Below, one piece after another: positions 31,703 to 57,747 of a DNA stretch of 64,000 nt. Below the pieces are notes generated by a model. The model did no database searches, was not told the DNA's origin, and saw only the letters and a program-made list of their open reading frames with translations. Position 1 is the first letter of the stretch. The number at the start of each line of letters is the position of its first letter. Made by a program: the position numbers and the translations under genes. The stretch is from a bacterium (GTDB lineage: Bacteria; Oederibacteriota; CAKKQC01): NCBI GenBank assembly GCA_919901855.1, contig CAKKQC010000010.1, positions 43,214 to 107,213 of the forward strand, given 5' to 3'.

Positions 31703-31703
31703 C

Positions 31704-35018: not shown

Positions 35019-37262
35019 TTGGGTGTGGCCACAGTCCGTGCCTTCGGTCGCGGCACCGCCCGTCGGGCCGCGTTCGTTTTCTTCCTCTGTTCCGGCTTCT
35101 GCTCCCTCGTCTACGAGGTCGTCTGGCTGAGACTGGCGTACGCGGCTTTCGGTGTCAACACGGAGGTCATGTCCGTGGTGATCTCCGTCTTCATGGGCGG
35201 GCTCGCGCTCGGGTCCTGGTGGGGGGGGCGGTGGATTGGATCGCTGGCCCGGGGCAGGTCGGCGCTGTGGTTCTACGCCGCCGCCGAGGTCGTGATCGGC
35301 GCGGGGGCCTTCGTCGTGCCTCTGGCGTTCGACGCCTCCCGGCGCCTCCTGCTGGCCCACGGCCCGGCTGACGCGCCCGCCTACCTTGCCAGCTCGGCCT
35401 TCCTGCTGGCCCTGAGCCTCCTGCCGTGGTGCCTGGCGATGGGCGCCACGTTCCCGTTCGCGATGGCGTTTCTGCGGCAGGCGGGGGCGGGCGATGAGGG
35501 GAGCTTCAGCTACCTCTATCTGGCCAACGTGATCGGCGCGATGACCGGCACGCTGGCGGCTGCGCTCTTCCTCGTCGAACTGGCTGGATTCCGCGGGACG
35601 CTTCATATGGCGGCGGGGCTCAACGTCGCCGTCGCCGCATCGGCCGCCTGGCTTGCGACCCGGAGCGTCCGGGGCCGGGCCCCGGAGACTGCCCGCCACG
35701 CCAGCTCGCCGGCTTTGGCCGGGACGCGCATCTACCCGGTCGTGCTCTTCGTGACCGGATTCACGTCGATGGGGATGGAGGTTGCCTGGATCCGGAGCTT
35801 CACCATCATTCTCGGGAACCAGATCTACTCGTTCGCCTGGCTCCTGGCCGTCTACCTGTTCGCCACCTGGCTCGGGTCCGCGGCGTACCGCCGCGACCGC
35901 GCAGGGGGGCGCCGTCCGCAGTCGCCCGGTCGTCTGGCGGGGTGGGCCGCCGTCTTCGCGCTCTGGCCCGTCCTCCTCGGCGATCCCCGCCTCGGTCCGG
36001 AACGCCTCCAGGTGCTGATCAGCCTCATGCCCTTCTGCTTCGTCCTCGGGTACCTGACGCCGCGCCTAGTGGATATGCGGTCCGCAGGCCGTCCGGCGGA
36101 GGCGGGCCGCGCCTACGCATGGAACATTCTGGGATGCATCCTCGGCCCGGTGGCCGCCTCCTACGGGCTCCTGCCGCGCTGGGGCGCCCAGGCGACGCTG
36201 GCCATCCTCGCCGTGCCGTACCTCGTGCTGGCCCCCGTGCTGACGGGCTGGAAGGCATGGCGGCTCCTCGACGGCGCCCTCGCCGGCGCGGCGGCCGCAT
36301 GCTTCGTCGGCGCGACCGGCTTCTCCCTCAGCTTCGACGGCGCCGTGGGCTCGGACCATCCGCCCGTGCGCCTCCTCCGGGACGCCACGGCCACGGTGGT
36401 GGCCTGCGGGCAGGGCACGGACAAGGACCTCTACACCAACGGCCTCGGGTTGACGCGGATGACGCCCGTCACCAAGATCATGGCGCACCTGCCCATGGTC
36501 TGCCTGACCCGCCCGCCGGAGGCGGTCGCGGTCATCTGCCTGGGCATGGGCACGACCTTCCGGTCCATGGCGAGGTGGGGCGTGGACACGACCGCCGTGG
36601 AGCTCGTGCCGAGCGTTAAGGAGGTCTTCGGCTTCTTCCACCCGGACGGCCCGGCGCTCGAACGCGACCCGCGGTTCCGGGTGATCATCGACGACGGCCG
36701 GCGGTTCCTGATGCGCACGGGCCGGCGGTTCGACGTGATCACCGTGGACCCGCCGCCGCCGGTCGAAGCGGCGGTGTCGAGTCTGCTCTATTCGACCGAG
36801 TTCTACGTGCTGGCCAGGTCCCGGCTCAAGCCCGGCGGAATCCTCCAGCAGTGGTATCCCGAGGGCGAGATCGCGGGCGGTCAGGCGACCCTGCGGGCCC
36901 TCCGTGGCGTTTTCCCCCATGTGCGCGCCTTCCGCTCCTGGCTCGGGAAGGGTGTGCATTTCCTGGCGTCCGAGCATGAAATCGTCCTGCCCGGCGAGGC
37001 CGTGATCCGCGACCGCATGCCGCCCGCGGCCCGGGCGGACCTCGTCGAGTGGGGGCGTCCGGCCAGCCTGCGCGAGTTCGCCCGGGGCATGCCGGGGCTG
37101 GAAGTCGAGGTCGCGGGCCTGCTGGACCCCGACTCCGCGTTCGAGCTGACCGACGACCGCCCGCGCAACGAGTACTACCTGGTCCGGAGATTGCGGCGGT
37201 GGATCTCGCGCACGCCCCCGGGCCCGGTCGAGCTCCGCTGGCCGTGGTCGCCGGCTCCCTGA
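35019..37262 (+). CDS. Spermidine synthase-like protein with fused N-terminal polytopic membrane domain
   Basis: N-terminus FFLCSGFCSLVYEVVWLRL typical of membrane-fused spermidine-synthase-like proteins; C-terminal DVITVDPPPP...GGIL methyltransferase-fold block; TTG/GTG start. Confidence 0.65.
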   Translation: MGVATVRAFGRGTARRAAFVFFLCSGFCSLVYEVVWLRLAYAAFGVNTEVMSVVISVFMGGLALGSWWGGRWIGSLARGRSALWFYAAAEVVIGAGAFVVPLAFDASRRLLLAHGPADAPAYLASSAFLLALSLLPWCLAMGATFPFAMAFLRQAGAGDEGSFSYLYLANVIGAMTGTLAAALFLVELAGFRGTLHMAAGLNVAVAASAAWLATRSVRGRAPETARHASSPALAGTRIYPVVLFVTGFTSMGMEVAWIRSFTIILGNQIYSFAWLLAVYLFATWLGSAAYRRDRAGGRRPQSPGRLAGWAAVFALWPVLLGDPRLGPERLQVLISLMPFCFVLGYLTPRLVDMRSAGRPAEAGRAYAWNILGCILGPVAASYGLLPRWGAQATLAILAVPYLVLAPVLTGWKAWRLLDGALAGAAAACFVGATGFSLSFDGAVGSDHPPVRLLRDATATVVACGQGTDKDLYTNGLGLTRMTPVTKIMAHLPMVCLTRPPEAVAVICLGMGTTFRSMARWGVDTTAVELVPSVKEVFGFFHPDGPALERDPRFRVIIDDGRRFLMRTGRRFDVITVDPPPPVEAAVSSLLYSTEFYVLARSRLKPGGILQQWYPEGEIAGGQATLRALRGVFPHVRAFRSWLGKGVHFLASEHEIVLPGEAVIRDRMPPAARADLVEWGRPASLREFARGMPGLEVEVAGLLDPDSAFELTDDRPRNEYYLVRRLRRWISRTPPGPVELRWPWSPAP

Positions 37263-37272
37263 TCGACCGGCC

Positions 37273-39255
37273 TCAGGGGGGCAGGACGTAGAGGCCCGGG
37301 CGGCCCGTGATCAGCGAGACCACGGTCCAGACCGAGGCGATCAGGGATTCCCCCAGGATCAGCCCCAGGAAGAACGGCAGGGCGCGCCGATAGGCGGTCG
37401 CGCCGCCGAACGTCATCGCGCACCACTTCGCCAGCCAGCCCAGGAAGATCGAGAACCAGATGGCCGCGATGGCCCAGGTGCCGCACATGATGAACCCGAA
37501 CGGCGTGAGCGGCCACCACAGGAACCGGGCGCGCAGGAACAGCATTCCGGCCGCCAGCGCCGCCCCGATTCCGGCGTGCGCGACGGACACGGGGAGGATC
37601 CGGACGCGACCGGCGGCCAGCCAGTCGTACGTACGGGGAGACTTCTGGTGGCCGACGAGGTTTCCGAAGTAGCCCTGCTGCATCTGGAGGTTAGCGAAGT
37701 CGTCGCCGTTCACGCCGCCGTACTTGTAGCAGGTCGTGATGCGACCGGCCGCCGAGGCCAGGATGGCGACGACGACCGTCACGCCGAACACGGCGAGGAC
37801 GCGGCCCGCGTGCAGCCGCGCGAGGGTCGCGGCGCGGACGCCGTTCATGAGGTAGGGCATCAGGATCTCGCGCAGCGTGTGCATGAGCACGCCCTTCTGC
37901 ATCGTGAGCCCGACCAGCGTTCGCGGGCCCATCCAACCGGAGGGCACCAGTCCCGTAGCCACGTCGTAGGCGGCCACATCGCTCACGACGAAGAGGAGCC
38001 CGGCCTCCGCCACCAGCCGCGTGAGCACGAGCAGGACGCAGAGGAAGAGGATGATCGCGGCGACGGCTGCCCACCACACCACGCCCGCGGCCATCAGCCA
38101 CGCAACCATCCCGGCGACGCCGCCGGCGGCCAGGACGAGCGTGAGCCGGGCCGGGAGCAGGTCGTCGCCCGCCCGGCCTCCCCACGCGTCCCGGAGCCAT
38201 CGCGCCAGGGACGCGCGCGCCGACCACGTGAGGAAGCCCGCGATCGTGACGATGGCCCCCGCGGCCTCGTGCACGGACACCTGCCGCCACCAGTCGCTGT
38301 AGAACCCGCCCTCGCCCCCGGCTCCAGCCCACGCGATCCAGACGTAGCTCAGCTTGTAGAGGACGAAGAATACCCAGAACGACAGCGAGACTTCGGTCGA
38401 GAGGAGAAACGTGAGCCCGATTATCGAGAAGTACACGTTCGCGTCCGCGAGGTCGAACTCGCTCCACGGCCGGTCGGGGAACAGCCCGTACGTGGACCAG
38501 CCGAGCTGGATCGCGGGGAGGGCGGGGTAGTACGACCGCAGCCCGTTCACGCCGAGCACGAGGATGGGCACGGCGGCGCCGAGCCAGACCGTGGGGGTAG
38601 TCAGGAACGCGTTCAGCCGCCTCCCCTCGGCGGGTTCCCGGGTCATCTCGAGCGGCAGGTAGACGATCGGGAAGATGAGCCGCTCGCGGTCCGCCCACTG
38701 CCGGAAGAAGAGCGACGTGAGCGCGAACATGGCGCCGTACAGGAGGAGCGCGAACGCGGACCAGACCGCGAGCGGCCGCAGCCACAGCCCCCAGGGAATC
38801 GACCGGTCCTTCGGGAGCCCCTCGAAGAACCAGCGCGCCGCGGAGCTGTTCGGGTCCCGCGTGACGACCATCCAGGCCGGCAGGTGCGGGAGCAGGTACG
38901 TGTCGTACCCGTTCGCGTTCGTGGCGTAGTACGCGGGGCCGACCAGCCAGCCGGGCAGGTACCGCATGAGCCCGGACGCCCCGATTCCCCCCGCGACCCC
39001 GATCATGCCCCACACGAGCAGGAGTTCGCCCTGCCCGAACCGCATCCGGGCGGGCACGAACGCGTTGAACCCCAGGATCATGGCGAGCAGGACGCCGACG
39101 CCGGCGGTGGGCAGGTGGTTGCCCATGAGCAGCGTGTTGCGCAGGTAGTAGTCGTTGTAGTTCATGACGAGGTTCATCGCCACCGCGCACAGCAGTCCGA
39201 GGCACACGGCCCGCGCCGTCACGGGTGATCCGGCGCTTCTTCTATCGTCATTCAC
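37273..39255 (-). CDS. Large polytopic membrane protein, unknown function
   Basis: 660-aa ORF with >12 hydrophobic helices; aromatic-rich loops; no catalytic motif recognised. Confidence 0.5.
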   Translation of the reverse strand: MNDDRRSAGSPVTARAVCLGLLCAVAMNLVMNYNDYYLRNTLLMGNHLPTAGVGVLLAMILGFNAFVPARMRFGQGELLLVWGMIGVAGGIGASGLMRYLPGWLVGPAYYATNANGYDTYLLPHLPAWMVVTRDPNSSAARWFFEGLPKDRSIPWGLWLRPLAVWSAFALLLYGAMFALTSLFFRQWADRERLIFPIVYLPLEMTREPAEGRRLNAFLTTPTVWLGAAVPILVLGVNGLRSYYPALPAIQLGWSTYGLFPDRPWSEFDLADANVYFSIIGLTFLLSTEVSLSFWVFFVLYKLSYVWIAWAGAGGEGGFYSDWWRQVSVHEAAGAIVTIAGFLTWSARASLARWLRDAWGGRAGDDLLPARLTLVLAAGGVAGMVAWLMAAGVVWWAAVAAIILFLCVLLVLTRLVAEAGLLFVVSDVAAYDVATGLVPSGWMGPRTLVGLTMQKGVLMHTLREILMPYLMNGVRAATLARLHAGRVLAVFGVTVVVAILASAAGRITTCYKYGGVNGDDFANLQMQQGYFGNLVGHQKSPRTYDWLAAGRVRILPVSVAHAGIGAALAAGMLFLRARFLWWPLTPFGFIMCGTWAIAAIWFSIFLGWLAKWCAMTFGGATAYRRALPFFLGLILGESLIASVWTVVSLITGRPGLYVLPP

Positions 39256-39326
39256 GGCGTCATTATAAGGGCGTCGGCGTCGGCCTTCGCCGGACCTTGC
39301 CGCCGAAGCGGCGGTACGATGGGGGC

Positions 39327-40703
39327 GTGATCAGGGAACCCGTCCACAAGGCCCGGCCGCCGGAACTCCGGGTCCCGCTCCTCCTGAACCCCGGCAAGGG
39401 ATGCGCCACCTTCCAGCGGTTCAACGGCGATCCCCTCAACCCCGGGGAGGCGTGGTCCGAGGAGGGCCCGCTTACATTCCCCCACGCCGACACGTGGGTT
39501 GCCGAGGGCTACCTACCCTCGACCGTCGCCTACTGCCGGTGGTTCTGGCACGTCCTCGAACCGGAGCCGGGGCGGATCGATTTCGATATGGTCGAAGGCG
39601 CGCTCGTCGCCGCGAAGGCCCGCGGCCAGTCCCTGCAAGTCCGGCTCATGCCGTTCGGCTCCCTTCACCAGCCCCAGCTCCCGGCGTGGTACCAGGCCAA
39701 GCATCCGCCGACGATGGCGAAGACGGACCCGCCGGGCGGCCGCAGCCACCTCGAGCCCGACCACGACAGCCCGGAGTATTTCGACGCGTGGGGCCGCGTG
39801 ATCGCCGAGTTCGGCCGCCGGTTCGACGGCCATCCGGATCTCGAGAGCGTGGACCTCGCCTTCCTCGGGCCCTGGGGCGAGGGCGCGGGCGACGCGAAGC
39901 GCGAGACCGTGGACCGGTTCGTGGACCTCTACGTCCAGTCACATCCGAAGACGCTCCTGCTCGCGAACACGGACGGATACCAGTTCGAGTGCGGGGCCGC
40001 GCGCGGGTGCGGGTGGCGGTGCGACTGCTTCGGCGACCTGCGGGGGCGCAAGGAGGCGGCGGGGAAGCCCTACCTCGCCTGGAACCATACTTACGAGTTC
40101 TACCCGCAGGCCGTGGCCGCGGCGTTGGCCGCGGACGTGTGGCGAACCCGGCCGATCACGTTCGAGACCTGTGCCACGCCGCTCGGGTGGCGGAACAAGT
40201 GGTACGCGGGGATCGAGGACCTCGAGTTCATGCTCGCGCAGGGGCTCAAGTTCCACGCCTCGGTCTTCATGCCCAAGTCCTCGCCGATCCCGGCCGAGTA
40301 CCTGGACCCGCTGGCCGTGTTCTGCGACGCGATGGGGTACCGGTTCGTGCTCCGCCAGGCGCGGTGGCAGGGCGCCGTCGAGCGCGGCGGCACCATGGAC
40401 CTCGAGCTCTGGATCGAGAACACGGGCACCGCGCCGGTCTACCGCGACTACCGCCTCGCCTTCCGGATCGAGAGCGCGGGCGCGGAGGCGGTCGTGCCCG
40501 TCGAGGGCGAAGCTAGGGGTTGGCTTCCGGGCGACGCGATCATCGAGCGCACGGTCTCCGTGCCCCGCGGCCTGCCCGCGGGCGCCGCGCGGCTCTCGGC
40601 GGGGCTCGTCCGGCCGGGCGAGGCCGTTCCAGCCGTCCGGTTCGCGAACGCGGGGACGGACGCCGACGGCTGGTTGCCGCTGGGCGAGGTCCGCGTCGCA
40701 TGA
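39327..40703 (+). CDS. Putative TIM-barrel glycoside hydrolase-like protein (GH42-like), start uncertain
   Basis: W.W..LEPEPG.IDFDMV...A...G..L.VRLMPFG pattern resembles GH42-type barrels; ORF open from 39225; no in-frame ATG near the 5' end. Confidence 0.4.
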   Translation: MIREPVHKARPPELRVPLLLNPGKGCATFQRFNGDPLNPGEAWSEEGPLTFPHADTWVAEGYLPSTVAYCRWFWHVLEPEPGRIDFDMVEGALVAAKARGQSLQVRLMPFGSLHQPQLPAWYQAKHPPTMAKTDPPGGRSHLEPDHDSPEYFDAWGRVIAEFGRRFDGHPDLESVDLAFLGPWGEGAGDAKRETVDRFVDLYVQSHPKTLLLANTDGYQFECGAARGCGWRCDCFGDLRGRKEAAGKPYLAWNHTYEFYPQAVAAALAADVWRTRPITFETCATPLGWRNKWYAGIEDLEFMLAQGLKFHASVFMPKSSPIPAEYLDPLAVFCDAMGYRFVLRQARWQGAVERGGTMDLELWIENTGTAPVYRDYRLAFRIESAGAEAVVPVEGEARGWLPGDAIIERTVSVPRGLPAGAARLSAGLVRPGEAVPAVRFANAGTDADGWLPLGEVRVA

Positions 40704-42136
40704 AGCGGATCCGGTACGAGCTCGCGGGCGGGCCGGACGCGCGGGACCTGGAGGCGGTGCGTGGGCAGGTCCTCGAGGTCCTCGAGAAGGTGGGCGTGGA
40801 CTGTCCCCACGAACGGACGCTCAACCGGCTGGCGGGCGACACCGGGATCCGCGTGGACGGGAGCCGCGTGTACTTCGCCCCGTCCCTCGTGGACGCGACC
40901 ATCGAGGCGTTCCGCCGCGCCGGGCCGCAGCGGGCGGTGCCCGACGAGGTGACCATCGGGGGGCCGTGGAACTGCTTCAACATCGAGGACATGGAGACCG
41001 GCCGGGTCCGGGCTTCCACCTCCCGCGATGTCCGCGAGATGTTCAAGCTCCTGTATGCCGCCGGGGGCGGGCCCGTCATGCTCGGGGCGGTCCGGGGCGG
41101 CCCCGTCAGTCCGGTCTTTCCGGCCGATATCCCGGGGCCCCTCCAGGTCCTTTACGTCGAGAAGGCGGGGATCGAGCTCACGCGGACGACCGGGTCCCTG
41201 CTCGAGTTCGGCGACGAGCGGATGGAGGAGATCGCGATCGAGATGCATAAGGCCGCCGGCCGACGCTACCGGATGATGGTCGAGTTCCCGATCAGCCCGC
41301 TCCGGTTCAACCCCCGGGGACTGGACAAGATCTGGACCTACCGGGACCGGACGGATATCGATCTTTACGCCGCGGCGGCCCCGATCCCGCAGGCCGGCGC
41401 CACCGCCCCGCGCGTCCTGCCGGGCGGGATCGTGCAGTCCGTGGCCGAGACCTACGCGGGCGCCATCACCGTGGACCGGATCACGGAGGGGCGCATCCCC
41501 GTCCGGCCCGAGTTCCGGCTCGAGATCTCGGACCTCCGGACGATGACCACCGCCTTCGGGGGCGCGCCCGAGTACCTGGTCACGCAGATGGCGATGCGGG
41601 ACGTCTACCGGTACTTCACCGGGAACCCGCGGATCGAGTGCTGTTTCCAGACCAACGCCAAGCGGTGCGACCTCCAGGCCATGATGGAGAAGACCTCGTG
41701 GGTGGTCGTCCACGCGCTCGGAGGCTTCCGCGACTTCTGGTTCGGCGCCGGCCAGCTCTCGATGGACGAGGTCTTCAGCCCGGCCCAGTTCGTGATCGAC
41801 CTCGAGCTCGGCCGCTATGCCGCCCGCCTCGTCCGGGGCGTGGCCTGGGACGACGAGCCGGGGGCGGCCTTTCGCGTGATCGCGGAGGCGGCGCCGGGCG
41901 GCGACTACCTCACCCACGACAGCACGATGGGGGCGCTGGGAGACCTCCACGAGTCCGACCTCTTCCCGCGGACGAGCGTGGCGCAGTGGCGCGAGGCGGG
42001 GGAGCCGGATCTCAGGGATCGCGCGATCGCGAAGGCGAAGGCCCTGATCGCGGGGCACGACCACCGGCTGGACGAGCGGGTCCAGCGCGAACTCGACCGC
42101 CTATGGGCGAAGGCGCAGGCGTTGGCGGGCGGTTGA
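40700..42136 (+). CDS. MttB-family (trimethylamine methyltransferase-like) protein, non-pyrrolysine type
   Basis: ATGA overlap; ~478 aa; N-terminal RIRYEL...VLEVLEKVGV and overall pattern of MttB superfamily; no in-frame amber codon. Confidence 0.6.
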   Translation: MKRIRYELAGGPDARDLEAVRGQVLEVLEKVGVDCPHERTLNRLAGDTGIRVDGSRVYFAPSLVDATIEAFRRAGPQRAVPDEVTIGGPWNCFNIEDMETGRVRASTSRDVREMFKLLYAAGGGPVMLGAVRGGPVSPVFPADIPGPLQVLYVEKAGIELTRTTGSLLEFGDERMEEIAIEMHKAAGRRYRMMVEFPISPLRFNPRGLDKIWTYRDRTDIDLYAAAAPIPQAGATAPRVLPGGIVQSVAETYAGAITVDRITEGRIPVRPEFRLEISDLRTMTTAFGGAPEYLVTQMAMRDVYRYFTGNPRIECCFQTNAKRCDLQAMMEKTSWVVVHALGGFRDFWFGAGQLSMDEVFSPAQFVIDLELGRYAARLVRGVAWDDEPGAAFRVIAEAAPGGDYLTHDSTMGALGDLHESDLFPRTSVAQWREAGEPDLRDRAIAKAKALIAGHDHRLDERVQRELDRLWAKAQALAGG

Positions 42137-42174
42137 GCGTCCCCGCCGTCCCGCCTGCTACCATTGACCGAGCC

Positions 42175-43674
42175 ATGGGCCGGTTACTGCTCCGACTCTT
42201 CCTCGCCGTCTTCGTCGTATTCGCTTTCCTCCCGTCCCGGGCCGGGTGGGCGATGGGAACCCGGATGCGCCAGCCCAATATCGTCTTTATCCTCGCGGAC
42301 GACCTCGGGTGGGCCGATCTCGGCTGTTACGGCAACCGCATCTTCGAGACTCCGAACATCGACGGGCTCGCGCGGTCGGGCGTCCGGTTCACGGAGGCCC
42401 ACGTCTGCACCGTCTGCATGCCCTCCCGGGTCGGGATCCTGACCGGCAAGAACCCGACCCGGCTCGCCAGCCTGTACGGCGCCACCGAGCCCTGCCGCGC
42501 CACGCCCTGGGATTCCCTCCCGCCGGGGGAGGTCACGTACGCGGAGGCGCTCGCCGCCGCCGGGTACGCAACCGGACACGTGGGCAAGTGGGGCGTCCGG
42601 CACTGGCAGGACCGGGGGGAGCGCGACCGGGGCTTCGCGTGGTGCGCGTTCACCGAGGACTGGTACTTCCTGCCGAACTACCGGTACCCGTTCTTCACCG
42701 GCGAGAACCACTTCCTCGACCTGGCGCCGGCCGAGGACCCCGGGTACCTCGTCGACGCCATGACGGCGAAGGCGGAGGCGTTCCTTACCGAGCACCGGGA
42801 CCGGCCGTTCCTGCTCACGCTCTCGCATTTCGCGGTCCACACGCCGATCGCGAACCAGGGCAAGCCGGAGCTGGCCGCCCGGATCCGGGAGCGGGCGAAG
42901 GCCGCGGGGGTCACGGTCACGCCCGACTACGGCGCGATCGTCGAGAGCCTGGACGCGAGCACGGGCCGGATCCTGGCCACGCTCCGGAAGCTGGGCCTCG
43001 AGGAGCGCACCGTCGTGGTCTTCCTCTCCGACAACGGGGGCGAGTGGAACCCCGAGACTCCCGGCGGCTTGGCCGTCACGTCGAACGCGCCCCTGCGCGG
43101 GGGGAAGGCGACCGTGTACGAGGGCGGGATCCGGGTCCCCCTGATCGTGCGGTGGCCGGGGACGGTGAAGCCGGGGACCGTCACCGCGGCGCTGACCGCG
43201 GTCGAGGACGTCTACCCGACCCTCCTGGGGATCGCGGGCGTCCCGGTACCGGCGAAGCAGAAGATCGACGGCGTCAGCCTCGTCCCCGTGCTCGACGGGT
43301 CGCGGGCGAGCGTCCGGGAGACGATGTTCACCCAGTGGGAGGGCGCGGTCGCGCGCCGGGGGCCGTGGAAGCTGATCGAGTACCCGCCGTACGTCCCCAC
43401 GGCCGCCGAGATCGAATCCGGCCGCGCGAAGGCGGCGAAGAAGGGCAAGCCGTACACGCCGCCGGAACCCAGGCGGTTCGCGCTCGAGCTCTACAACCTC
43501 GCCGACGACCTCGGGGAGACGCACGACCTCTCGGCCGGGCAGCCCGGGATCGTCCGCGACCTGCGCCGCGAGCTCCACGCGTGGATGAAGGCCATGGTCG
43601 GCGAGGCGCAATACTCCCTGGACCGTCCGCGCGCGGACGCGAAGGCGCAGGGCCAGACCTACCCCGATCCCTGA
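42175..43674 (+). CDS. Sulfatase (formylglycine-dependent, Cys-type), secreted
   Basis: Signal peptide; PNIVFILADDLGWADLGCYG; CMPSR FGly motif; GKWG and SDNGG blocks. Confidence 0.85.
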   Translation: MGRLLLRLFLAVFVVFAFLPSRAGWAMGTRMRQPNIVFILADDLGWADLGCYGNRIFETPNIDGLARSGVRFTEAHVCTVCMPSRVGILTGKNPTRLASLYGATEPCRATPWDSLPPGEVTYAEALAAAGYATGHVGKWGVRHWQDRGERDRGFAWCAFTEDWYFLPNYRYPFFTGENHFLDLAPAEDPGYLVDAMTAKAEAFLTEHRDRPFLLTLSHFAVHTPIANQGKPELAARIRERAKAAGVTVTPDYGAIVESLDASTGRILATLRKLGLEERTVVVFLSDNGGEWNPETPGGLAVTSNAPLRGGKATVYEGGIRVPLIVRWPGTVKPGTVTAALTAVEDVYPTLLGIAGVPVPAKQKIDGVSLVPVLDGSRASVRETMFTQWEGAVARRGPWKLIEYPPYVPTAAEIESGRAKAAKKGKPYTPPEPRRFALELYNLADDLGETHDLSAGQPGIVRDLRRELHAWMKAMVGEAQYSLDRPRADAKAQGQTYPDP

Positions 43675-43724
43675 CGGGCCCCGCGGACTCCGGCGGCCGG
43701 GCAACGGGGTATAATCCCTTTCGC

Positions 43725-44708
43725 ATGCGACTGGTCCAGCTTTTCCTCGAGGGCGGCGCGCGCCGCGTGGCGGTCTCCGACGGCGGGCCGCTCCGGATCA
43801 TCCGCGGCGTGGCCACGACGATCGAGCTGGGGCGCCGGGCGATCGCGGACGGGACCGGGCTGGCCCTTACGGTCGAGGCGCTCGGGTTCGACGGAACCGC
43901 GGACTGGGACCGGGAGCTCGGGGCGGGCCGGGTACTGCCCCCCGCGGATCATCCCGAGCCGGCCCGGTGTCACGTCACCGGCACCGGGCTGACCCATCTC
44001 GGGAGCGCCGACGCGCGCGCGAAGATGCACGCGACGCTGGCGGCCGGGGATCTCACCGACTCGATGCGGATGTTCAAGCTGGGGCTCGAGGGCGGCAAGC
44101 CGGCGGACGGCGGCGCGGGCGTACAGCCCGAGTGGTTCTACAAGGGCAACGGCCTCTCCGTGGTCCCACCCGGTGGGGCTCTCGTCCGGCCGTCGTTCGC
44201 CCTCGACGGCGGGGACGAGGCCGAGATCTGCGGCGTCTACCTCGTCGGCGACGACGGGACGCCCTGGCGCCTCGGGTTCGCGCTCGGCAATGAGTTCTCG
44301 GACCACGCCATGGAGCGGATCAACTACCTCTACCTCGCCCACTCCAAGCTGCGCGCCTGCGCCTTCGGCCCCGAACTGCTGGTCGGCGGCCTGCCGGGCA
44401 GCGTCCGGGGCCGGGTCGCCGTGGTCCGGAACGGCGCCCCGGTGTGGGAGAGGGAGTTCCTGAGCGGCGAGGAGAACATGACGCACACGATCGCGAATCT
44501 CGAGGCGCACCACTTCAAGTACCCGTTCTTCCGTCGTCCCGGCGACCTCCACGTGCACTTCTTCGGGACGGGGACGTTCTCGTTCCGGGACGGGATCGCG
44601 GTCGGGGACGGCGACGTGCTCCGGATCGAGTCCGAGGTCTTCGGCCGCCCGCTCGAGAATCCCGTGCGGTTCGACCCCGCGGAGTTCGTCGCCGTGAGGG
44701 CCCTGTGA
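43725..44708 (+). CDS. Fumarylacetoacetate hydrolase (FAH) family protein, GguC/2-keto-3-deoxy-pentonate dehydratase-like
   Basis: ~327 aa; WFYKGNG and EICGVYLVGDDG regions resemble FAH-fold GguC/KdxD-like proteins; family call from memory only. Confidence 0.5.
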   Translation: MRLVQLFLEGGARRVAVSDGGPLRIIRGVATTIELGRRAIADGTGLALTVEALGFDGTADWDRELGAGRVLPPADHPEPARCHVTGTGLTHLGSADARAKMHATLAAGDLTDSMRMFKLGLEGGKPADGGAGVQPEWFYKGNGLSVVPPGGALVRPSFALDGGDEAEICGVYLVGDDGTPWRLGFALGNEFSDHAMERINYLYLAHSKLRACAFGPELLVGGLPGSVRGRVAVVRNGAPVWEREFLSGEENMTHTIANLEAHHFKYPFFRRPGDLHVHFFGTGTFSFRDGIAVGDGDVLRIESEVFGRPLENPVRFDPAEFVAVRAL

Positions 44709-46171
44709 GCGGGATGGCGGTCGACGAGGCCGTCAGCGCCGCGGTCGCGGCGTTCCCGGAGTACCGGGCCCGCTCCCGGGAGGAGATCGCGCGATTCCTG
44801 GACGCGATCGGGGAAGGCATCCTGGGGCTCGGCGACGTCCTGCTGGAGACCTGCGCCGCCGAGACCGGCCTGCCGCGGGCCCGGCTCGAGGGCGAGCGGG
44901 CGCGGACCGTGGGCCAGCTCGGGCTCTTCGCCCGCGTCGTCGGCGAGGGCTCCTGGGTCCGGGCGCGCATTGACCGGGCCCTGCCGGACCGCAAGCCGGC
45001 GCCCCGGCCCGACATCCGGTCCATGCTCGTCCCGCTGGGCCCGGTCGCCGTCTTCGGGTCGTCGAACTTCCCGTTCGCGTTCTCGACGGCGGGCGGCGAC
45101 ACCGCCTCGGCGCTCGCGGCCGGCTGTCCCGTGATCGTGAAGGCGCATTCCGGGCACCCGGGGACCTCGGATCTCGTGGCTGGGGTGGTGTCCGCGGCCG
45201 TGAAGTCGGCCGGACTGCCGGCGGGGGTGTTCAGCCACGTGCACTGCGACCATGCCGGGGGCCTGGCGCTCGTCCGCGCGGCCGGGGTGAAGGCGGCGGG
45301 GTTCACGGGGTCGCTCGCGGCCGGCCGCGCGCTGTTCGACGCCGCCGCATCCCGGCCCGACCCGATTCCCCTGTTCGCGGAGATGGGATCGGTGAACCCC
45401 GTGGTCGTCCTGCCGTCCGCGCTCGCGGGCGGCGCCGCCGGGCTGGCGGAATCCCTGTGCGGCTCCGTGACCCTGGGCGTCGGCCAGTTCTGCACGAATC
45501 CCGGGCTCGTGTTCGTCCTGGAGGGACCTGGTACGGACGCCTTCCTCGCCGCCCTCGCGGGGCGCATTGCGGCGACCCCGCCGGCGGCGATGCTGACGGG
45601 GGCCATCCTCGCCGCCTACGTCGCGGGAGTCGAGCGGATGGCCGCCGTGCCCGGCGTGACCGTGGCCGGCCGGGCGGCGACGGCGCCGGACCGGCCGAGG
45701 CGCGAGGGCGCCGCCGTGGTCATGGCGGTGTCGGGCGCCGTCTTCCTGGCGACGCCGGTGTTGCGCGAAGAGATCTTCGGCCCGTCGACGCTGGTCGTTC
45801 GTTGTGCCGACAACGACGAACTGGAGGCCGGGATTGCCGCCCTGCCCGGCCAGCTCACGGCCACGGTGCACGGGACCGAACCGGATGTCGCCTCCCGCCC
45901 CGGGCTCGTCTCCCTCCTGCGCGACCGGTCGGGCCGGCTTCTCTTCGGCGGCGTCCCCACCGGCGTCGAGGTCGGGGACTCGATGCAGCACGGGGGACCC
46001 TGGCCCGCGACCACCGACGCGCGGTTCACCTCGGTGGGCAGTGCCGCGATCCTCCGGTTCGTGCGGCCCGCGGCCTGGCAGGGCTTCCCCGACGCCCTGC
46101 TCCCGCCCGCGTTGCGGGACGCCAACCCCTTGAGGATTCACCGGCTCGTGGACGGTGTCTGGACCGCGTGA
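44705..46171 (+). CDS. Aldehyde dehydrogenase family (alpha-ketoglutarate semialdehyde dehydrogenase-like)
   Basis: GTGA overlap with upstream gene; FGSSNFPF, catalytic Cys region GQFCTNPG, and EEIFGP blocks. Confidence 0.8.
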   Translation: MSGMAVDEAVSAAVAAFPEYRARSREEIARFLDAIGEGILGLGDVLLETCAAETGLPRARLEGERARTVGQLGLFARVVGEGSWVRARIDRALPDRKPAPRPDIRSMLVPLGPVAVFGSSNFPFAFSTAGGDTASALAAGCPVIVKAHSGHPGTSDLVAGVVSAAVKSAGLPAGVFSHVHCDHAGGLALVRAAGVKAAGFTGSLAAGRALFDAAASRPDPIPLFAEMGSVNPVVVLPSALAGGAAGLAESLCGSVTLGVGQFCTNPGLVFVLEGPGTDAFLAALAGRIAATPPAAMLTGAILAAYVAGVERMAAVPGVTVAGRAATAPDRPRREGAAVVMAVSGAVFLATPVLREEIFGPSTLVVRCADNDELEAGIAALPGQLTATVHGTEPDVASRPGLVSLLRDRSGRLLFGGVPTGVEVGDSMQHGGPWPATTDARFTSVGSAAILRFVRPAAWQGFPDALLPPALRDANPLRIHRLVDGVWTA

Positions 46172-46228
46172 CCTCCGTGCGGGGCTATGATACTGGGGTG
46201 CTCCAATACATGAAGGGTTTCGCCAACC

Positions 46229-48046
46229 GTGGTTGACATCGTAATCGCGGCCCTGCTGGCCATCGGCACTTCGACAGCCGCGCCCGCGCCGGCCTCTCCG
46301 GTAACCGTCAAGCTGCTCTGCGACTCCGGCTCCATCAGGCTGGGTCAGCCGGTCTGGGTCGGGGTGGAGTTCCGGATGAAGCCCGGCTGGCACATCTACT
46401 GGCGCAATCCGGGCGATTCGGGAATGCCGACGTCCATCGCCTGGACGCTGCCGTCCGGATTCACGGTCGGCGAAATCCAGTGGCCGCGGCCCGAACGGAT
46501 GCTCGAGGGGACCCTGGTCACCTACGGGTACTCGGGCTCCGTCCTGTTGATGGCGCGCCTGACCACGCCAAGGGAGATGAAGTCCTTCACCGGGCTCCAC
46601 CTCGCCGCGTCCGCCTCGTGGCTCGCATGCAAGGACATGTGCATCCCGGGGAAGGCGGATGTCGTCCTCGATCTGCCCGCCGGAGACGGTCAACCGGGTC
46701 CGAATGCCGGGATCTTCGTCCGGACCCGCCGGCTCCTCCCCGCGCCCGGGGTCGCGCCGCCCGGCGCGTCGGCGGTCCCGCCGGGTTCCCCGGAGCCGCC
46801 GGGCGCCTCACCGGCCGGGGACGAGGACCTGGGGCTCGGGTTCTGGGGTGCCCTCCTGTTCGCGTTCCTGGGCGGCATGATCCTGAACCTGATGCCCTGC
46901 GTCTTCCCCGTGCTCTCGATCAAGGTCATCGGCTTCGTCCGCGAGTCTTCCCATCAGCCGCGTGAGGTGAAGGTGCACGGCCTGCTCTACGGCCTCGGCG
47001 TGGTCGTGTCGTTCTGGCTGCTCGCGTCGGGGCTCATCCTGCTCAGGGCCGGCGGGGAACGGCTCGGGTGGGGTTTCCAGCTCCAGTCGCCCACCGTGAT
47101 CCTGGGGCTGGCCGTCATCATGTTCCTGCTGTCGTTGAACCTGCTCGGCGTGTTCGAGGCGGGCACCTCCATCGCCCACACGACGGGGAAGTTCACGTGG
47201 ACCGAGGGCCGGGCCGGCGCCTTCTTCACCGGCGTCCTCGCCACGTTTCTCGCCACTCCCTGCACGGCGCCGTTCATGGGGACCGCGCTCGGGTACGCGA
47301 TGACCCGGCCGGTCCACGAGGGGCTGGCCGTCTTCACCGCGCTCGGAGTCGGCATGGCCGCCCCGTATATGGGCCTGTCGTTCGCGCCCCATCTCAGCCG
47401 GTACCTGCCCCGGCCCGGGCGGTGGATGGAGACCTTCAAGCAGGTCATGGCGTTCCCCCTGCTGGTCACGGTCATCTGGCTGCTCTGGGTTCTCGGCCTC
47501 CAGGCGGGGCTGGCCGCCGTCATCACTGCGCTGGGCTGTCTCCTTGTGTCCGGCGTGGCCGGCTGGCTCTACGGGCGTTGGCACACCAGGTTCATGCGGG
47601 TGGTGGTCGTCCTCCTGATCGCTGGCGGCGTGCTGGCTACCGTGGCGAGCATGCGGAACGCGGCCCCCATGGGAGCCCCGGCGGCCGCCGGCGAATGGGA
47701 ACCCTACACCCAGGGCCGGCTCGATGCGGCGTTGGCCAAGGGCGACCCCGTGTTCGTGGACTTCACGGCGGCGTGGTGCCTGACCTGCAAGGTCAACGAG
47801 ATGACGGCCCTCAATGTCCGCGACGTCATGGAAGCGTTCCGCCGGCACCGGGTCGTGCTCCTGAAGGCGGACTGGACCAATCCCAACCCGGACATCGAGC
47901 GCGCCCTGGCCGCGTCCGGCCGTACCGGGGTTCCCCTATACCTGCTCTACACGGGCGGACGTGGCTCCGCGCCGAAGGTGCTTCCGCAGATCCTGACGGC
48001 CCGGAAGGTCCTGGCCGAACTGGACGCCCTGCCCGCCCGCAACTGA
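46229..48046 (+). CDS. dsbD: Thiol:disulfide interchange protein DsbD
   Basis: N-terminal periplasmic domain, central CcdA-like TM domain with MPCVFPVLS Cys, C-terminal thioredoxin domain with WCLTC (CxxC). Confidence 0.8.
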   Translation: MVDIVIAALLAIGTSTAAPAPASPVTVKLLCDSGSIRLGQPVWVGVEFRMKPGWHIYWRNPGDSGMPTSIAWTLPSGFTVGEIQWPRPERMLEGTLVTYGYSGSVLLMARLTTPREMKSFTGLHLAASASWLACKDMCIPGKADVVLDLPAGDGQPGPNAGIFVRTRRLLPAPGVAPPGASAVPPGSPEPPGASPAGDEDLGLGFWGALLFAFLGGMILNLMPCVFPVLSIKVIGFVRESSHQPREVKVHGLLYGLGVVVSFWLLASGLILLRAGGERLGWGFQLQSPTVILGLAVIMFLLSLNLLGVFEAGTSIAHTTGKFTWTEGRAGAFFTGVLATFLATPCTAPFMGTALGYAMTRPVHEGLAVFTALGVGMAAPYMGLSFAPHLSRYLPRPGRWMETFKQVMAFPLLVTVIWLLWVLGLQAGLAAVITALGCLLVSGVAGWLYGRWHTRFMRVVVVLLIAGGVLATVASMRNAAPMGAPAAAGEWEPYTQGRLDAALAKGDPVFVDFTAAWCLTCKVNEMTALNVRDVMEAFRRHRVVLLKADWTNPNPDIERALAASGRTGVPLYLLYTGGRGSAPKVLPQILTARKVLAELDALPARN

Positions 48047-48109
48047 CGGGGAAGTCCGGCTGGCCTTATCCATGCCTCCGATCATGCTGTTCGATGTCTC
48101 CCGGTACGA

Positions 48110-49681: not shown

Positions 49682-49741
49682 CAGGGGCTCTGCAACCGGA
49701 GCCGGTTGCGCGGGGGAGTTCAGCAGGAGGAGGATGATGTC

Positions 49742-50644
49742 ATGAGGAAGACGCTCGGGGCAGTTGTGCGGTGGATCATGGTACTGGCCGGCGGGCTGGT
49801 GCCGGCGCTGGCCGGCGCCAAGGCGTCGTCGAAGCCCGCGTCCCTGGCCGTCCGGCCCGCCTGCGGGGTGACCGGGTACGTGGTCGCCCTCGAGTACGTG
49901 TTCGGGACGCGCGGCAACGTCAGGAATATCGACGACCTCAACCGGCTATTCATGCACGACGCTCCCTGGGGGAGGATCAACCTCGAGCTCCAGTCGTATC
50001 CGCCCTTCAACCCCCGGAATCACGTGTTCGAGAAGGACTGCCTGGCGCTCACGGGAGTGCACGACGGCAGCACGAACTACACCGAGTTCGGCCACATCAC
50101 GAGCGGCGCCATCCTCTCGAAGGCCACGTGCATGGCGCCCTGCATCGTCGAGTTCGTCGCGAAGCTGCCGGCCGGCCGCGGCGTCTGGCCGGCCCTCTGG
50201 CTGTACGACAACCACTCCGGCCGGCACGACTCCTCCGAGATCGACGTCATGGAGAGCCAGAACAACCCGCCGAAGATCGACCGGTCCATGATCTTCCAGT
50301 TCGACCACGGGCCGGGCGCGGGCGAGGTCCTGTCCGACCCGGGCGGGTTCGGGAAGGACGGCTTCTGGCGGCCGTACGGCGCCATGCCGGGCGGCGACAT
50401 GTCCACGCGGTTCGCGGCCTACTCCGTCCACTGGCTGCCCGACCGGACGGTCCGGTACGTGGACGACCGGGAGGGGATCACGCGCGCGTTCCGGTGGACC
50501 GGCCCGGAGGCGCCCAACCTCATTGTCTACAACTCCATCAGTTCGGAGAAGAACGACTGGACGGGCCCGGTGCTCCCCGAAAGTTTCGCCCGCGACAACT
50601 CCGTCTTTCGCATCAAGTCGATCCGGGTCTTCGTCCCGCGCTAG
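49742..50644 (+). CDS. Glycoside hydrolase family 16 (laminarinase/beta-glucanase-like), secreted
   Basis: Signal peptide; GH16 catalytic motif EIDVME; ~300 aa beta-jelly-roll size. Confidence 0.8.
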   Translation: MRKTLGAVVRWIMVLAGGLVPALAGAKASSKPASLAVRPACGVTGYVVALEYVFGTRGNVRNIDDLNRLFMHDAPWGRINLELQSYPPFNPRNHVFEKDCLALTGVHDGSTNYTEFGHITSGAILSKATCMAPCIVEFVAKLPAGRGVWPALWLYDNHSGRHDSSEIDVMESQNNPPKIDRSMIFQFDHGPGAGEVLSDPGGFGKDGFWRPYGAMPGGDMSTRFAAYSVHWLPDRTVRYVDDREGITRAFRWTGPEAPNLIVYNSISSEKNDWTGPVLPESFARDNSVFRIKSIRVFVPR

Positions 50645-53590: not shown

Positions 53591-53677
53591 GGAGAGGTGG
53601 CCGAGCGGCCGAAGGCGGCGGACTCGAAATCCGCTAGGGGGGAAACTTCCTCGGGGGTTCAAATCCCCCCCTCTCCG
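53591..53677 (+). tRNA. tRNA-Ser (anticodon CGA)
   Basis: 87-nt class II tRNA: acceptor GGAGAGG/CCTCTCC, anticodon stem GCGGA/TCCGC with loop CTCGAAA, long variable arm, T-arm GGGGG-TTCAAAT-CCCCC. Confidence 0.9.
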
Positions 53678-57733: not shown

Positions 57734-57747
57734 CCTCGCGGGACGTG

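Follow-up and report, generated by a model that had tools for sequence, protein, structure and literature searches.

The divergent MttB-like protein described here is a member of a large and uncharacterised branch of the MttB family, which is present in many uncultured bacteria. It is the clade of this protein, and not its orphan status, that is the notable feature. As the clade recurs beside sugar-cleaving enzymes in these bacteria, its substrate is probably sugar-derived and not a methylamine. Our tentative reading, taken from gene context only, is that the branch works in the catabolism of carbohydrates, and not of methylamines or betaines. The protein would be a methyltransferase whose substrate is sugar-derived and carries a methyl group or another modification, and the gene for its corrinoid partner would lie elsewhere. 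In the window, i.e., the whole 64-kb stretch of DNA that was analysed, the genes concerned are the following:

37273 to 39255, minus strand: DUF6785/DUF6784 polytopic membrane protein, in divergent orientation (Pfam DUF6785 406.9 bits, DUF6784 105.4 bits)
39327 to 40703, plus strand: DUF4832-family protein, predicted to have a clan GH-A-like (beta/alpha)8 barrel and a C-terminal beta-sandwich
40700 to 42136, plus strand: MttB-like gene, for a divergent TIM-barrel protein of the MttB superfamily (478 aa, without pyrrolysine, predicted to be cytoplasmic)
42175 to 43674, plus strand: exported Cys-type (formylglycine) sulfatase, 38 nt past the MttB-like stop codon
43725 to 44708, plus strand: AraD1/GguC-family protein of the FAH fold (NCBIfam NF040903 GguC 469.6 bits, cutoff 340)
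44705 to 46171, plus strand: aldehyde dehydrogenase (Pfam Aldedh 127 bits), with a 4-nt overlap with the AraD1 stop codon

The MttB-like ORF is uninterrupted over 478 codons. Its codon bias is normal, and its GC1/2/3 of 0.70/0.48/0.94 is the typical coding signature of a 70% GC genome. The first-pass annotation had called the product an MttB homologue without pyrrolysine, and both parts of this claim were confirmed. The protein matches the Pfam MTTB profile (PF06253) with 125.7 bits (E=1.8e-36, cutoff 25) over profile positions 38-494 of 500, and hhalign aligns it to canonical members with a probability of 100 at 21% identity. Through Foldseek, its AF2 model (pLDDT 92.1, pTM 0.90) was matched to MtgB and MttB at TM 0.73-0.79. 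There is no in-frame TAG in the gene, and the position of Pyl334 in MttB is taken by Q317. The protein, in which no signal peptide was found, is a genuine non-Pyl member of the MttB superfamily with the MttB fold.

At NCBI and JGI, it is annotated as a trimethylamine methyltransferase family protein; the 100% identical NCBI record MEK7474991.1 reads ‘trimethylamine methyltransferase family protein [Candidatus Coatesbacteria bacterium]’. Going by this label, and by neighbours that vary even among close homologues, it could be an ordinary glycine-betaine or TMA-type homologue beside unrelated genes, or a decaying copy. Such an explanation is very improbable. The protein shares 20-25% identity with MtgB and MttB, which are 31% identical to each other, and the substrate residues are replaced. 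In a word-indexed search, relatives scoring at least 136 bits share 32-83% identity with it, and canonical members score at most 79 bits. A clade profile gives 139 bits to MtgB and 126 bits to MttB, and 211-699 bits to the 150 best of 1.84 billion representatives. The strong purifying conservation of the clade (more than 60 clusters, 28 invariant columns), the intact ORF with its normal codon bias, and the GH4 and URO-D-like neighbours, which are non-random and were seen again in an independent set, also argue against an ordinary or decaying copy. The analysis supports a place for the protein outside all the characterised clades (MttB, MtgB, MtcB, MtyB, MtpB and MthB).

At the level of sequence, the substrate pocket is remodelled. 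Three of the four MtgB substrate-contact residues, the roles of which (Y97, R312, H348 and F356) are known from PMC13080624, are replaced. The aromatic Y97 is kept as W90; R312 corresponds to I312, which is unconserved in the clade, H348 to F348, which is variable, and F356 to a near-invariant D356, followed by an invariant E357. R273 and R344 are new invariants of the clade, and E154 is also listed as one. The canonical invariants lost in the clade are H131, K162, G316, D319, S355, E362 and H401 (MtgB numbering). The motifs PL, AGxTxP, AE, DxR, AKxxDxQA, AG and D...T...W are kept, which amount to 25 of the 70 canonical conserved columns, and from this retained core a related reaction is argued.

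Corrinoid and activation partners are indeed missing nearby, as had been noted earlier. In Pfam scans of all of the approximately 48 genes of the window, no B12-binding or pterin-binding domain and no URO-D/MT2 came up, and neither a RamA-type activase nor a pyl gene; with Rfam, no cobalamin riboswitch was found in the window. Likewise, none of 84 non-redundant homologue loci has a credible B12-binding domain. The premise that MttB homologues ‘normally’ adjoin a corrinoid gene was not supported. L052 and L053, both canonical homologues that the same search returned, are also without B12-binding or corrinoid neighbour genes, and the MtgB of Ruegeria pomeroyi depends on MtgC and MtgD, both of which also serve methionine synthesis (PMC12478193). 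A corrinoid partner encoded elsewhere, therefore, has precedent, and the orphan status of the gene is nothing special. With a non-Pyl member that lies outside the characterised clades, has a remodelled pocket and lacks a corrinoid partner nearby, the ‘undescribed substrate’ of the first-pass annotation is reasonable, and the family-wide context would suit a substrate related to glycans.

The missing B12-binding domains in the window and the 84 loci fit a corrinoid-free enzyme equally well, and a corrinoid-independent use of the MttB fold, the other option raised before, is possible. The barrel might have been re-purposed for non-methyltransferase sugar chemistry, such as an isomerase, lyase, hydratase or hydrolase step cooperating with GH4, which we regard as rather doubtful. 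The change of the pocket from aromatic/basic to acidic/polar, with D356, E357, R344, R273 and E154 as new invariants, would agree with such a role, as would the loss of G316 and D319 beside the Pyl position and the sugar-catabolic neighbours (GH4, AP_endonuc_2, GFO/IDH/MocA, aldolase, Dak, ROK and ABC sugar transporters). However, around one-third of the superfamily-conserved columns are kept, including the signature motifs, and canonical relatives, which certainly depend on a corrinoid, are often encoded far from the corrinoid protein (L052, L053; PMC12478193). Moreover, GH4 aside, the neighbour found most often is an MtaA/CmuA-like protein, and for this family, with the exception of uroporphyrinogen decarboxylase itself, only corrinoid-dependent methyl transfer is known (PMC13222342).

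The neighbour census covered 84 non-redundant loci from about ten phyla. GH4 glycosidases were present in 12 and MtaA/CmuA-like URO-D proteins in 15 of them, and sugar ABC transporter and ROK genes recur too. The first set of 39 dereplicated loci (about 10 phyla) had GH4 (9), URO-D-like (9), sulfatase (6), Metallophos (5) and arylsulfotransferase (4) genes. GH4 came top in the Pfam census, in which URO-D, AP_endonuc_2, sugar ABC transporter components and ROK were also recurrent, and it is frequently the next or an overlapping gene (L009, L019, L024, L040). In a replication with 45 independent metagenome loci, URO-D-like genes were found at six and GH4 at three. The URO-D-like neighbours are closest to MtaA/CmuA methyltransferases, half of them keeping the HxCG zinc motif, and the adjacency of this second methyltransferase family favours methyl-transfer chemistry. 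The window has neither a GH4 nor a URO-D-like gene; this context reaches the window gene by homology only, at 33-55% identity to members with those neighbours. The adjacency of sulfatase, GFO/IDH/MocA and AP_endonuc_2 genes may be due to chance, as they are very numerous in Planctomycetota-like genomes.

Locally, the MttB-like ATG (40700-40702) overlaps the TGA of the upstream gene (40701-40703) in an ATGA, gtcgcATGAagcgg, which bears out the translational coupling reported at first. The start of this DUF4832 gene is uncertain (in-frame GTG 39225, TTG 39297 and GTG 39327), with homologues of 445-460 aa favouring 39327. Its product, with more than 433 homologues, has no signal peptide, and its E185 and E280 are invariant in the homologue alignment A4. 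Of the label ‘GH42-like TIM barrel’, the GH-like barrel is correct, since Foldseek pairs the AF2 model (pLDDT 92) with (beta/alpha)8 glycosidases of clan GH-A (probability 1.0, E about 2e-9), namely GH5 endoglycoceramidase, GH35 beta-galactosidases, PslG and beta-amylase (GH5/GH35/GH39/GH14 barrels). GH42 itself is not established, with 18.2 bits under a family threshold of 21, as against 53.8 bits for DUF4832. The DUF4832/MttB-like pairing is not conserved. The closest MttB-like homologue (83% identity) has neighbours different from those of the window, and a 68%-identical DUF4832 homologue has no adjoining MttB-like gene. Sulfatases are present at only 7/84 loci, and the functional weight placed on the GH-like and sulfatase neighbours is not supported.

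The downstream gene does encode a secreted Cys-type sulfatase, with Pfam Sulfatase (186.8 bits) and SGSH_C matches, a hydrophobic, signal-like N-terminus (MGRLLLRLFLAVFVVFAFLPSRAGWA) and the motif C-M-P-S-R (CxPxR). Its place directly after the MttB-like gene would suit a demethylase of quaternary amines that acts on a choline-like osmolyte with a sulfate or phosphate group (choline-O-sulfate, in analogy to the phosphocholine enzyme MthB), its corrinoid partners being elsewhere. MthB shows that MttB members can need an esterified choline (PMC12155760); at some of the loci, there are recurrent genes for sulfatases, Metallophos phosphoesterases and arylsulfotransferase-like proteins; W90 keeps the aromatic character of Y97 in MtgB, and a cation could be bound by D356/E357. 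This explanation is, however, improbable. The second cation-pi residue of MtgB (F356) and the anion-binding R312 and H348 are not conserved, and neither the window nor the loci contain a betaine/choline transporter, a choline kinase or a BetC-type context. The sulfatase is an exported protein, whereas the MttB-like one is predicted to stay in the cytoplasm. The seven loci with a sulfatase are mostly from sulfatase-rich phyla, with none from Firmicutes or Spirochaetes, whose operons are plainly for sugar uptake. Choline-O-sulfate, the example once put forward, is thus disfavoured.

The AraD1/GguC gene follows the sulfatase gene on the same strand after a 50-nt gap. Its family comprises 2-keto-3-deoxy-pentonate dehydratases of oxidative pentose pathways. 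The aldehyde dehydrogenase is a candidate 2,5-dioxovalerate (alpha-ketoglutarate semialdehyde) dehydrogenase, with weak NCBIfam matches, all sub-cutoff, that include 2,5-dioxovalerate and KGSA dehydrogenases. The DUF4832, MttB-like, sulfatase, AraD1/GguC and aldehyde dehydrogenase genes probably form one operon. The DUF6785/DUF6784 membrane protein is possibly a transporter; in the Armatimonadia MAG L028, a homologue is found less than 7 kb away from the MttB-like gene (BLAST cluster), and DUF6785 also turns up in the Pfam census.

For the preferred reading, in carbohydrate catabolism, we infer methyl-transfer chemistry, a sugar substrate and a distant corrinoid partner. The MttB-like protein would be the substrate-specific ‘MT1’ component, its polar pocket (predicted lining W90, R273, R344, Q352, D356 and E357) taking a methylated or otherwise modified sugar-derived molecule, though no named methylated sugar is derivable from the data. 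The acceptor of the methyl group would be a Co(I) corrinoid carrier, the gene for which would lie at another place in the genome. Where, as in many other genomes, adjoining genes encode an MtaA/CmuA-like URO-D protein and a GH4 glycosidase, these would take the later steps; here, the gene may have been recruited into the probable operon with the DUF4832 hydrolase, sulfatase, AraD1/GguC dehydratase and aldehyde dehydrogenase genes.

Among solved structures, the best match is MtgB, the glycine betaine:corrinoid methyltransferase of Desulfitobacterium hafniense (PDB 2QNE/9YCE; 64 bits by single sequence, 139 by clade profile, Foldseek TM 0.73-0.76). Both are full-length, pyrrolysine-free TIM barrels with N- and C-terminal helical extensions, and they share the PL, AGxTxP, AE, DxR, AKxxDxQA and AG motifs and the aromatic residue at Y97 (W90). 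Where MtgB holds glycine betaine by R312, H348 and F356, the MttB-like protein has an unconserved residue, a variable one and D356. The MtgB gene sits with corrinoid protein and MT2 genes, whereas the MttB-like gene lies without them in a glycan/sugar catabolism context. The Pyl-dependent TMA methyltransferase MttB of Methanosarcina barkeri (PDB 7XCL/7XCN) has the same fold (TM 0.78-0.79), and its G110-T111 cis-peptide position corresponds to the conserved G88-P89. Its Pyl334 and Y364 correspond to Q317 and W347, both variable in the clade. Unlike MttB, the protein has no UAG codon or pyl genes, and it scores 133 bits with the Pyl-type model TIGR02369, far under the cutoff of 525.

In aerobic Proteobacteria, orphan genes of the MttB family (R. 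pomeroyi MtgB with MtgC/MtgD; Sinorhizobium meliloti 4YYC) also have no adjacent corrinoid gene, and their context, like that of the MttB-like gene, mirrors the catabolism of the demethylated product. They belong, however, to the canonical clade, with the signature N/D344, I/V346 and hydrophobic residues at 356/357; L052 and L053 adjoin SRPBCC/Amdase/dimethylglycine-dehydrogenase-like genes, and not GH4 or sugar transporters. MthB, the phosphocholine:corrinoid methyltransferase of Eubacterium limosum, is a precedent for an MttB member whose esterified substrate is made by a neighbouring enzyme, but its gene clusters with those of MthC, MthA and MthK, and its substrate is a quaternary amine, features that are not seen for the MttB-like gene. 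An MttB-family sugar demethylase has not been described in the literature searched. Demethylation that enables further metabolism, as proposed here, is known from the URO-D-superfamily O-demethylase/haloalkane MT1 proteins MtvB, OdmB, MtoB and CdmB, and also from the cytochrome P450 sugar O-demethylase of marine bacteria, an oxygen-dependent enzyme of a different family. The MtvB, OdmB, MtoB and CdmB systems, too, belong to another protein family and have adjacent corrinoid proteins, but URO-D-like proteins are frequent beside the MttB-like clade.

With about 70% GC in the window, the genes were called by third-position GC. Those around the MttB-like gene are as follows.

37273-39255, minus strand: DUF6785/DUF6784 membrane protein, divergent from the operon
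39327-40703, plus strand: DUF4832 protein (Pfam DUF4832, 53.8 bits)
40700-42136, plus strand: MttB-like protein (Pfam MTTB, 125.7 bits)
42175-43674, plus strand: sulfatase (PF00884, 186.8 bits)
43725-44708, plus strand: AraD1/GguC protein (profile match)
44705-46171, plus strand: aldehyde dehydrogenase (profile match)
46229-48046, plus strand: DsbD

The MttB-like reading frame is intact (478 codons, GC3 of 0.94), and its ATG lies on the stop codon of the upstream gene in an ATGA overlap. The sulfatase starts 38 nt past the MttB-like stop codon and has a signal-like N-terminus; its PF00884 score of 186.8 bits and its CMPSR sequence, a C/S-x-P-x-R motif, place it among the type I (formylglycine) sulfatases. 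Gene calls, Pfam matches, the overlap and the partner scan all agree with the first-pass annotation, which had described an orphan MttB-family gene with a glycosidase-like gene upstream and a sulfatase downstream. A promoter and terminator scan of 37000-50000 gave no signal above shuffled controls.

The MttB-like protein matches Pfam PF06253 over its full length, scoring 125.7 bits where 25 would suffice and spanning positions 38-494 of the 500 in the profile, and the homology first read from the sequence is thereby confirmed by HMM search. Its AF2 model (pLDDT 92.1, pTM 0.90) has significant Foldseek matches in the MttB family only, namely MtgB (9yce/2qne), a S. meliloti homologue (4yyc) and MttB (7xcl/7xcm/7xcn), with E values of 1e-20 to 7e-26, TM scores of 0.73-0.79 and 19-21% identity, while the next fold has E>0.008. 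As only MttB-family structures match significantly, superfamily membership and fold are secure. The protein is not a Pyl-type trimethylamine (TMA) methyltransferase equivalog, since TIGR02369 gives 133.3 bits where 525 are needed. Nor does it carry pyrrolysine: there is no internal stop codon, and Q317 is aligned at the Pyl334 position, so the earlier call of a non-pyrrolysine member stands.

MttB and MtgB are 31% identical to each other (PMC9842639), and the window protein is 20-25% identical to either. A word-indexed search returned close relatives in about 70 clusters (32-83% identity, 464-488 aa), with canonical members dropping to 79 bits or less. An exhaustive profile search of 1.84 billion representatives gave 6168 matches at E<=1e-3, of which 979 reached E<=1e-30; the best 150 profile matches grade from 699 to 211 bits, and the apparent gap to the canonical members is gone. 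The clade profile scores MtgB at 139 bits and MttB at 126 bits. Those cluster entries of the clade that were looked up are metagenome-only. According to the signature table, the wider radiation has R344, F346, D356, E357, F359 and P361 in common (‘RFGxDEFxP’), positions taken in the canonical proteins by N/D, I/V and hydrophobic residues; the tighter subgroup of the window protein adds G88-P89-W90, E154, R273 and Q352. The gene belongs to a branch of the MttB superfamily that is as yet uncharacterised and is associated with carbohydrates. That it is an ordinary betaine or TMA enzyme, or a relic, is very improbable, being contradicted by sequence, conservation and context alike.

Within this branch, 25 of the 70 canonical columns that are at least 90% conserved are retained, with most signature motifs included. 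They comprise R56, R104, P200-L201, G233, T235, P237, A249-E250, D278, D324, G342, G351, D367, T409 and W430, among others, which suggests that the scaffold has been kept. The canonical conserved residues that are lost (in MtgB numbering) are H131, K162, G316, D319, S355, E362 and H401; of these, G316 and D319 adjoin the Pyl position.

The product of the overlapping upstream gene had been described as a GH42-like TIM barrel. The glycosidase-like barrel is supported by fold, and the GH42 identity is not, as PF02449 reaches 18.2 bits against a cutoff of 21 and covers about 100 residues of the product of 39327-40703. The AF2 model (pLDDT 92) matches the (beta/alpha)8 glycosidases of clan GH-A and has a C-terminal beta-sandwich. 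Its structural matches include GH5 endoglycoceramidases, GH35 beta-galactosidases, PslG and beta-amylase, with GH39 among the barrels; the structure fits clan GH-A barrels generally (GH5, GH35, GH39), not a GH42 architecture. DUF4832 is a large family of more than 433 homologues, 445-460 aa long, in several phyla. E185 and E280 are invariant in alignment A4, and this alignment, taken with secondary structure, suggests that they sit at the positions of the clan GH-A catalytic pair. DUF4832 is not a conserved partner of the MttB-like gene, for no homologue occurs in the 38 other dereplicated loci of the first round. A DUF4832 gene of 68% identity adjoins GH38, with no MttB-like gene there, and an MttB-like gene of 83% identity has AP_endonuc_2, ThuA and a URO-D-like gene at its sides. 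The MttB-like/DUF4832 pairing is specific to this genome.

Further along the operon lie genes for the AraD1/GguC protein and the aldehyde dehydrogenase, which, judged by their families, presumably carry out the last reactions of an oxidative pentose or uronate pathway. Other glycan-degradation genes in the window encode a GH3 with a PA14 insert, a GH130, a CE7 acetyl-xylan esterase, a GH16-like protein, a second sulfatase and MFS transporters. The MttB-like gene stands here in a setting of glycan catabolism, as the picture across the clade would lead one to expect, and the particular neighbours in this window carry little functional information. A second glycan cluster at 57745-63998 holds the GH3 with inserted PA14, the GH130 (a mannoside-phosphorylase family), an MFS transporter and a sulfatase cut by the window end. 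In a gap amid the glycan genes, at 50902-52134, lies an AAA_14/DUF4143 ATPase gene of atypical codon bias, with a tRNA gene (53591-53677) about 1.5 kb downstream; locus L005 has two members of this ATPase family near its MttB-like gene, the one of 83% identity.

Several features elsewhere in the window were also recorded. A contiguous tetrapyrrole-synthesis block at 12917-16953 (hemA for GluTR, hemC, hemD, hemB) comes after a set of genes for cytochrome c biogenesis of the system II type at 8423-12966 (one ResB-like and two CcsA-like); hemE and cobalamin-branch genes were not found in the window. At 3758-6135, two adjacent genes have a third-position GC clearly below the rest of the window and may have been horizontally acquired. 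One encodes a secreted repeat protein with weak beta-propeller/PQQ-like matches and a C-terminal sorting-domain-like tail, and the other a protein with the look of an outer-membrane beta-barrel and no Pfam match. At 30614-32381, a gene for a protein with a Ras/Arf-like small GTPase domain precedes one for a Roadblock/LC7-like protein, a pair that resembles an MglA/MglB-type polarity module. At 35019-37262, a 747-aa fusion joins an MFS-like membrane N-terminal part to a spermidine-synthase-like domain and matches the NCBIfam ‘fused MFS/spermidine synthase’ at 62 bits.

When all other genes of the 64-kb window were scanned with Pfam, no B12-binding domain, URO-D/MT2 (methylcorrinoid methyltransferase), pterin-binding domain, RamA-type activase or pyl gene was found, which bears out the observation that corrinoid and activation partners are missing nearby. 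Rfam found two tRNAs in the window and no cobalamin riboswitch. The ten loci with precomputed Pfam had no B12-binding domain, and in two batches of neighbours none was seen among Pfam families with at least two members, single-member matches lying outside that listing. A regular expression (DxHxxG..SxL..GG) run over the loci met spurious frames only and no credible B12-binding domain. A phmmer search of six-frame ORFs from all loci, with an approximate E. coli MetH B12-domain query and no positive control in the local data to gauge its sensitivity, gave no match. Small ORFs were considered as hidden corrinoid proteins and rejected: in L040, a Sphaerochaeta locus, the 234-aa product is GlcN6P-isomerase/6PGL-like and the 140-aa product is a class II aldolase, and the 201-aa product at L029 matches Dak2. 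A gene cluster of the quaternary-amine type, with a cognate corrinoid protein, a methylcorrinoid:THF/CoM MT2 and often a RamA/RamQ activase, was found neither in the window nor in the 84 related loci.

The first-pass annotation had held that MttB-family genes normally sit beside a corrinoid protein. This is the rule in anaerobic Firmicutes and methanogen systems (PMC12155760, PMC13080624), but it is not general. Two canonical homologues from the same search (L052 and L053) also have no B12-binding neighbours and lie beside SRPBCC, Amdase and dimethylglycine-dehydrogenase-like genes. In Ruegeria pomeroyi, another exception, MtgB needs MtgC and MtgD, which are essential for glycine betaine demethylation and methionine synthesis (PMC12478193). 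The lack of nearby corrinoid genes is therefore not diagnostic, given that the canonical L052 and L053 share it. The main rival reading, that the barrel has been turned to corrinoid-free sugar chemistry other than methyl transfer, draws on the fact that all loci apparently lack corrinoid genes and on the loss of several canonical invariants, and is judged unlikely, if still to be reckoned with.

The wider context was drawn from 10 contexts with precomputed Pfam and 36 loci from species-representative genomes, giving 39 independent loci after dereplication; the genome loci of the clade are all MAGs. They come from Planctomycetota, Armatimonadota, Hebobacteria, Hydrogenedentota, Omnitrophota, Poribacteria, Chloroflexota, Clostridia, Sphaerochaeta and other Spirochaetota. 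Recurrent neighbour families, defined by BLAST clustering of genes at most 7 kb away, were URO-D-like (9/39 loci), GH4 (9/39), sulfatase (6/39), Metallophos (5/39) and arylsulfotransferase-like (4/39). When Pfam families were counted among 212 neighbours at 29 of the 39 loci, GH4 came top with 9 members and URO-D had 6; AP_endonuc_2, permeases and binding proteins of ABC sugar transporters, ROK, GH172/DUF2961 and GFO/IDH/MocA were also present. GH4 often adjoins or overlaps the MttB-like gene (L009, L019, L024, L040). Replication on metagenome contigs added 45 independent loci of 5.7 kb median length, with URO-D-like genes in 6 and GH4 in 3, in each case directly downstream (L062, L063, L101). 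The totals over 84 loci are 12 for GH4 and 15 for URO-D-like genes. As most genomes carry few copies of GH4 and of MtaA-like genes, these counts appear to be far above chance. The URO-D-like neighbours are much diverged; MtaA/CmuA methyltransferases are their nearest relatives, and about half have the HxCG zinc motif. O-demethylase and haloalkane MT1 enzymes (substrate-specific methyltransferases) come from the URO-D superfamily (PMC13222342).

The low-GC loci are plain sugar-uptake operons. The Sphaerochaeta operon (L040) runs GH4, binding protein, two permeases, PHP protein, ROK, GlcN6P-isomerase-like, MttB-like, GH4 and class II aldolase. The Clostridia operon (L037) runs GH4, binding protein, two permeases, a canonical-type MttB (315 bits) and the clade MttB, then an opposite-strand Zn-ADH, GH4 and ROK, with the URO-D-like gene last. 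In the latter (L037:4812-7670, MAG contig CAYRAK010000035.1), the canonical-type protein (Pfam MTTB 315 bits) and the divergent one stand in tandem inside the sugar ABC-transporter/GH4/ROK operon, are about 24% identical to each other's clades, and have no corrinoid protein on the 13-kb contig. Planctomycetota MAGs (L007, L009, L019, L020) have an ASST-like gene directly 3' of the MttB-like gene or the MttB-like/GH4 pair; upstream lie an HD-domain response regulator (L007, L009, L020) and a Metallophos phosphoesterase (L007, L009). This arrangement is a conserved local module. Three unrelated loci share, close to the MttB-like gene, a protein family for which Pfam, NCBIfam and the PDB gave no match (L002:8357-9946, 529 aa, directly upstream; L013:5464-6882, 472 aa; L032:8092-9390, 432 aa), its members falling within 430-530 aa. 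A homologue of the large polytopic DUF6785/DUF6784 protein lies at most 7 kb from an MttB-like gene in an Armatimonadia MAG (L028:17767-20013, minus strand), and this protein could be a candidate transporter for the MttB-like substrate.

The sulfatase and phosphoesterase neighbours, and the precedent of MthB, faintly favour a demethylase of choline-O-sulfate or a phosphocholine-like ester. This is improbable: the pocket residues speak against it, a transporter is missing, and sulfatase and MttB-like protein would be in different compartments. Overall, the first-pass interpretation was partly right, though not for the reasons given. CdmB, which acts on chloromethane, is no precedent for a non-amine MttB, as it belongs to the URO-D superfamily. 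Because the family core is retained and an MtaA/CmuA-like partner recurs, the reading tentatively favoured, from sequence, makes the window protein a methyltransferase of the MT1 type that would act on a sugar-derived substrate, methylated or modified, and would depend on a corrinoid carrier whose gene lies elsewhere in the genome. More speculatively, the MttB-fold proteins of the clade and their MtaA/CmuA-like neighbours might form a previously unrecognised, oxygen-independent system for demethylation (or other modification) of O- or N-methylated sugars or glycosides, which seems rather doubtful at present. The demethylated or otherwise modified sugars would pass to NAD-dependent GH4 glycosidases and downstream sugar pathways, and the system would work with a shared housekeeping corrinoid carrier or without any corrinoid protein. 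The functional claim comes from comparative genomics, and the window copy is without the two most informative neighbours.

To our knowledge, all members of the MttB superfamily characterised so far take their methyl group from trimethylamine or a quaternary amine, and for this reason the family is used in metagenomes of gut, wetland and sea as a marker for the turnover of methylamines and betaines. The branch with a different pocket and carbohydrate context comprises at least 150 clusters at 50% identity; its genes are now annotated ‘trimethylamine methyltransferase’ and would be miscounted in such surveys. The literature searched showed no link of MttB homologues to sugars, GH4, sulfatases or Planctomycetes, and no anaerobic route of sugar O-demethylation. 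The sole sugar O-demethylase found there is an oxygen-dependent P450 (PMC6292453). If the branch acts on methylated sugars, a gap in anaerobic sugar O-demethylation would be filled, and an oxygen-independent system, if true, would add carbohydrates to the methylamines and betaines that make up the MttB substrate range. Concrete test cases are the operons of Sphaerochaeta and Clostridia in which ABC transporter, ROK, GH4 and MttB-like gene come together.

The active site was compared with MtgB and MttB through profile-profile and profile-sequence alignments, with MtgB residues representing the pocket of the quaternary-amine members (MtgB, MtcB, MtyB, MtpB, MthB). The glycine-betaine contacts of MtgB are Y97, F356, R312 and H348, known from its crystal structure and mutagenesis (PMC13080624). 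In the window protein, Y97 is replaced by W90, conserved in the clade; a HMMER pairwise alignment had suggested deletion of the Y97 loop, but the profile-profile alignment pairs Y97 with W90. R312 becomes I312 (not conserved in the clade), H348 becomes F348 (variable), and F356 becomes D356, which is near-invariant and followed by an invariant E357. Three of the four contact residues are not conserved, and glycine-betaine-like specificity is rejected. The quaternary-amine pocket of two aromatics for the trimethylammonium group and basic residues for the anionic group is not matched, with only the Y97 position still aromatic. Compared with MttB, Pyl334 corresponds to Q317 (Q/H/C/D/N/R in the clade) and Y364 to W347 (variable), whereas the G110-T111 cis-peptide that contacts the corrin corresponds to G88-P89, conserved in the clade. 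The corrinoid-facing geometry is possibly kept. The pocket appears to have lost its aromatic and basic character, which fits betaines, and to have become polar, with acidic and basic residues around one aromatic platform, in which it would resemble typical sugar-binding sites.
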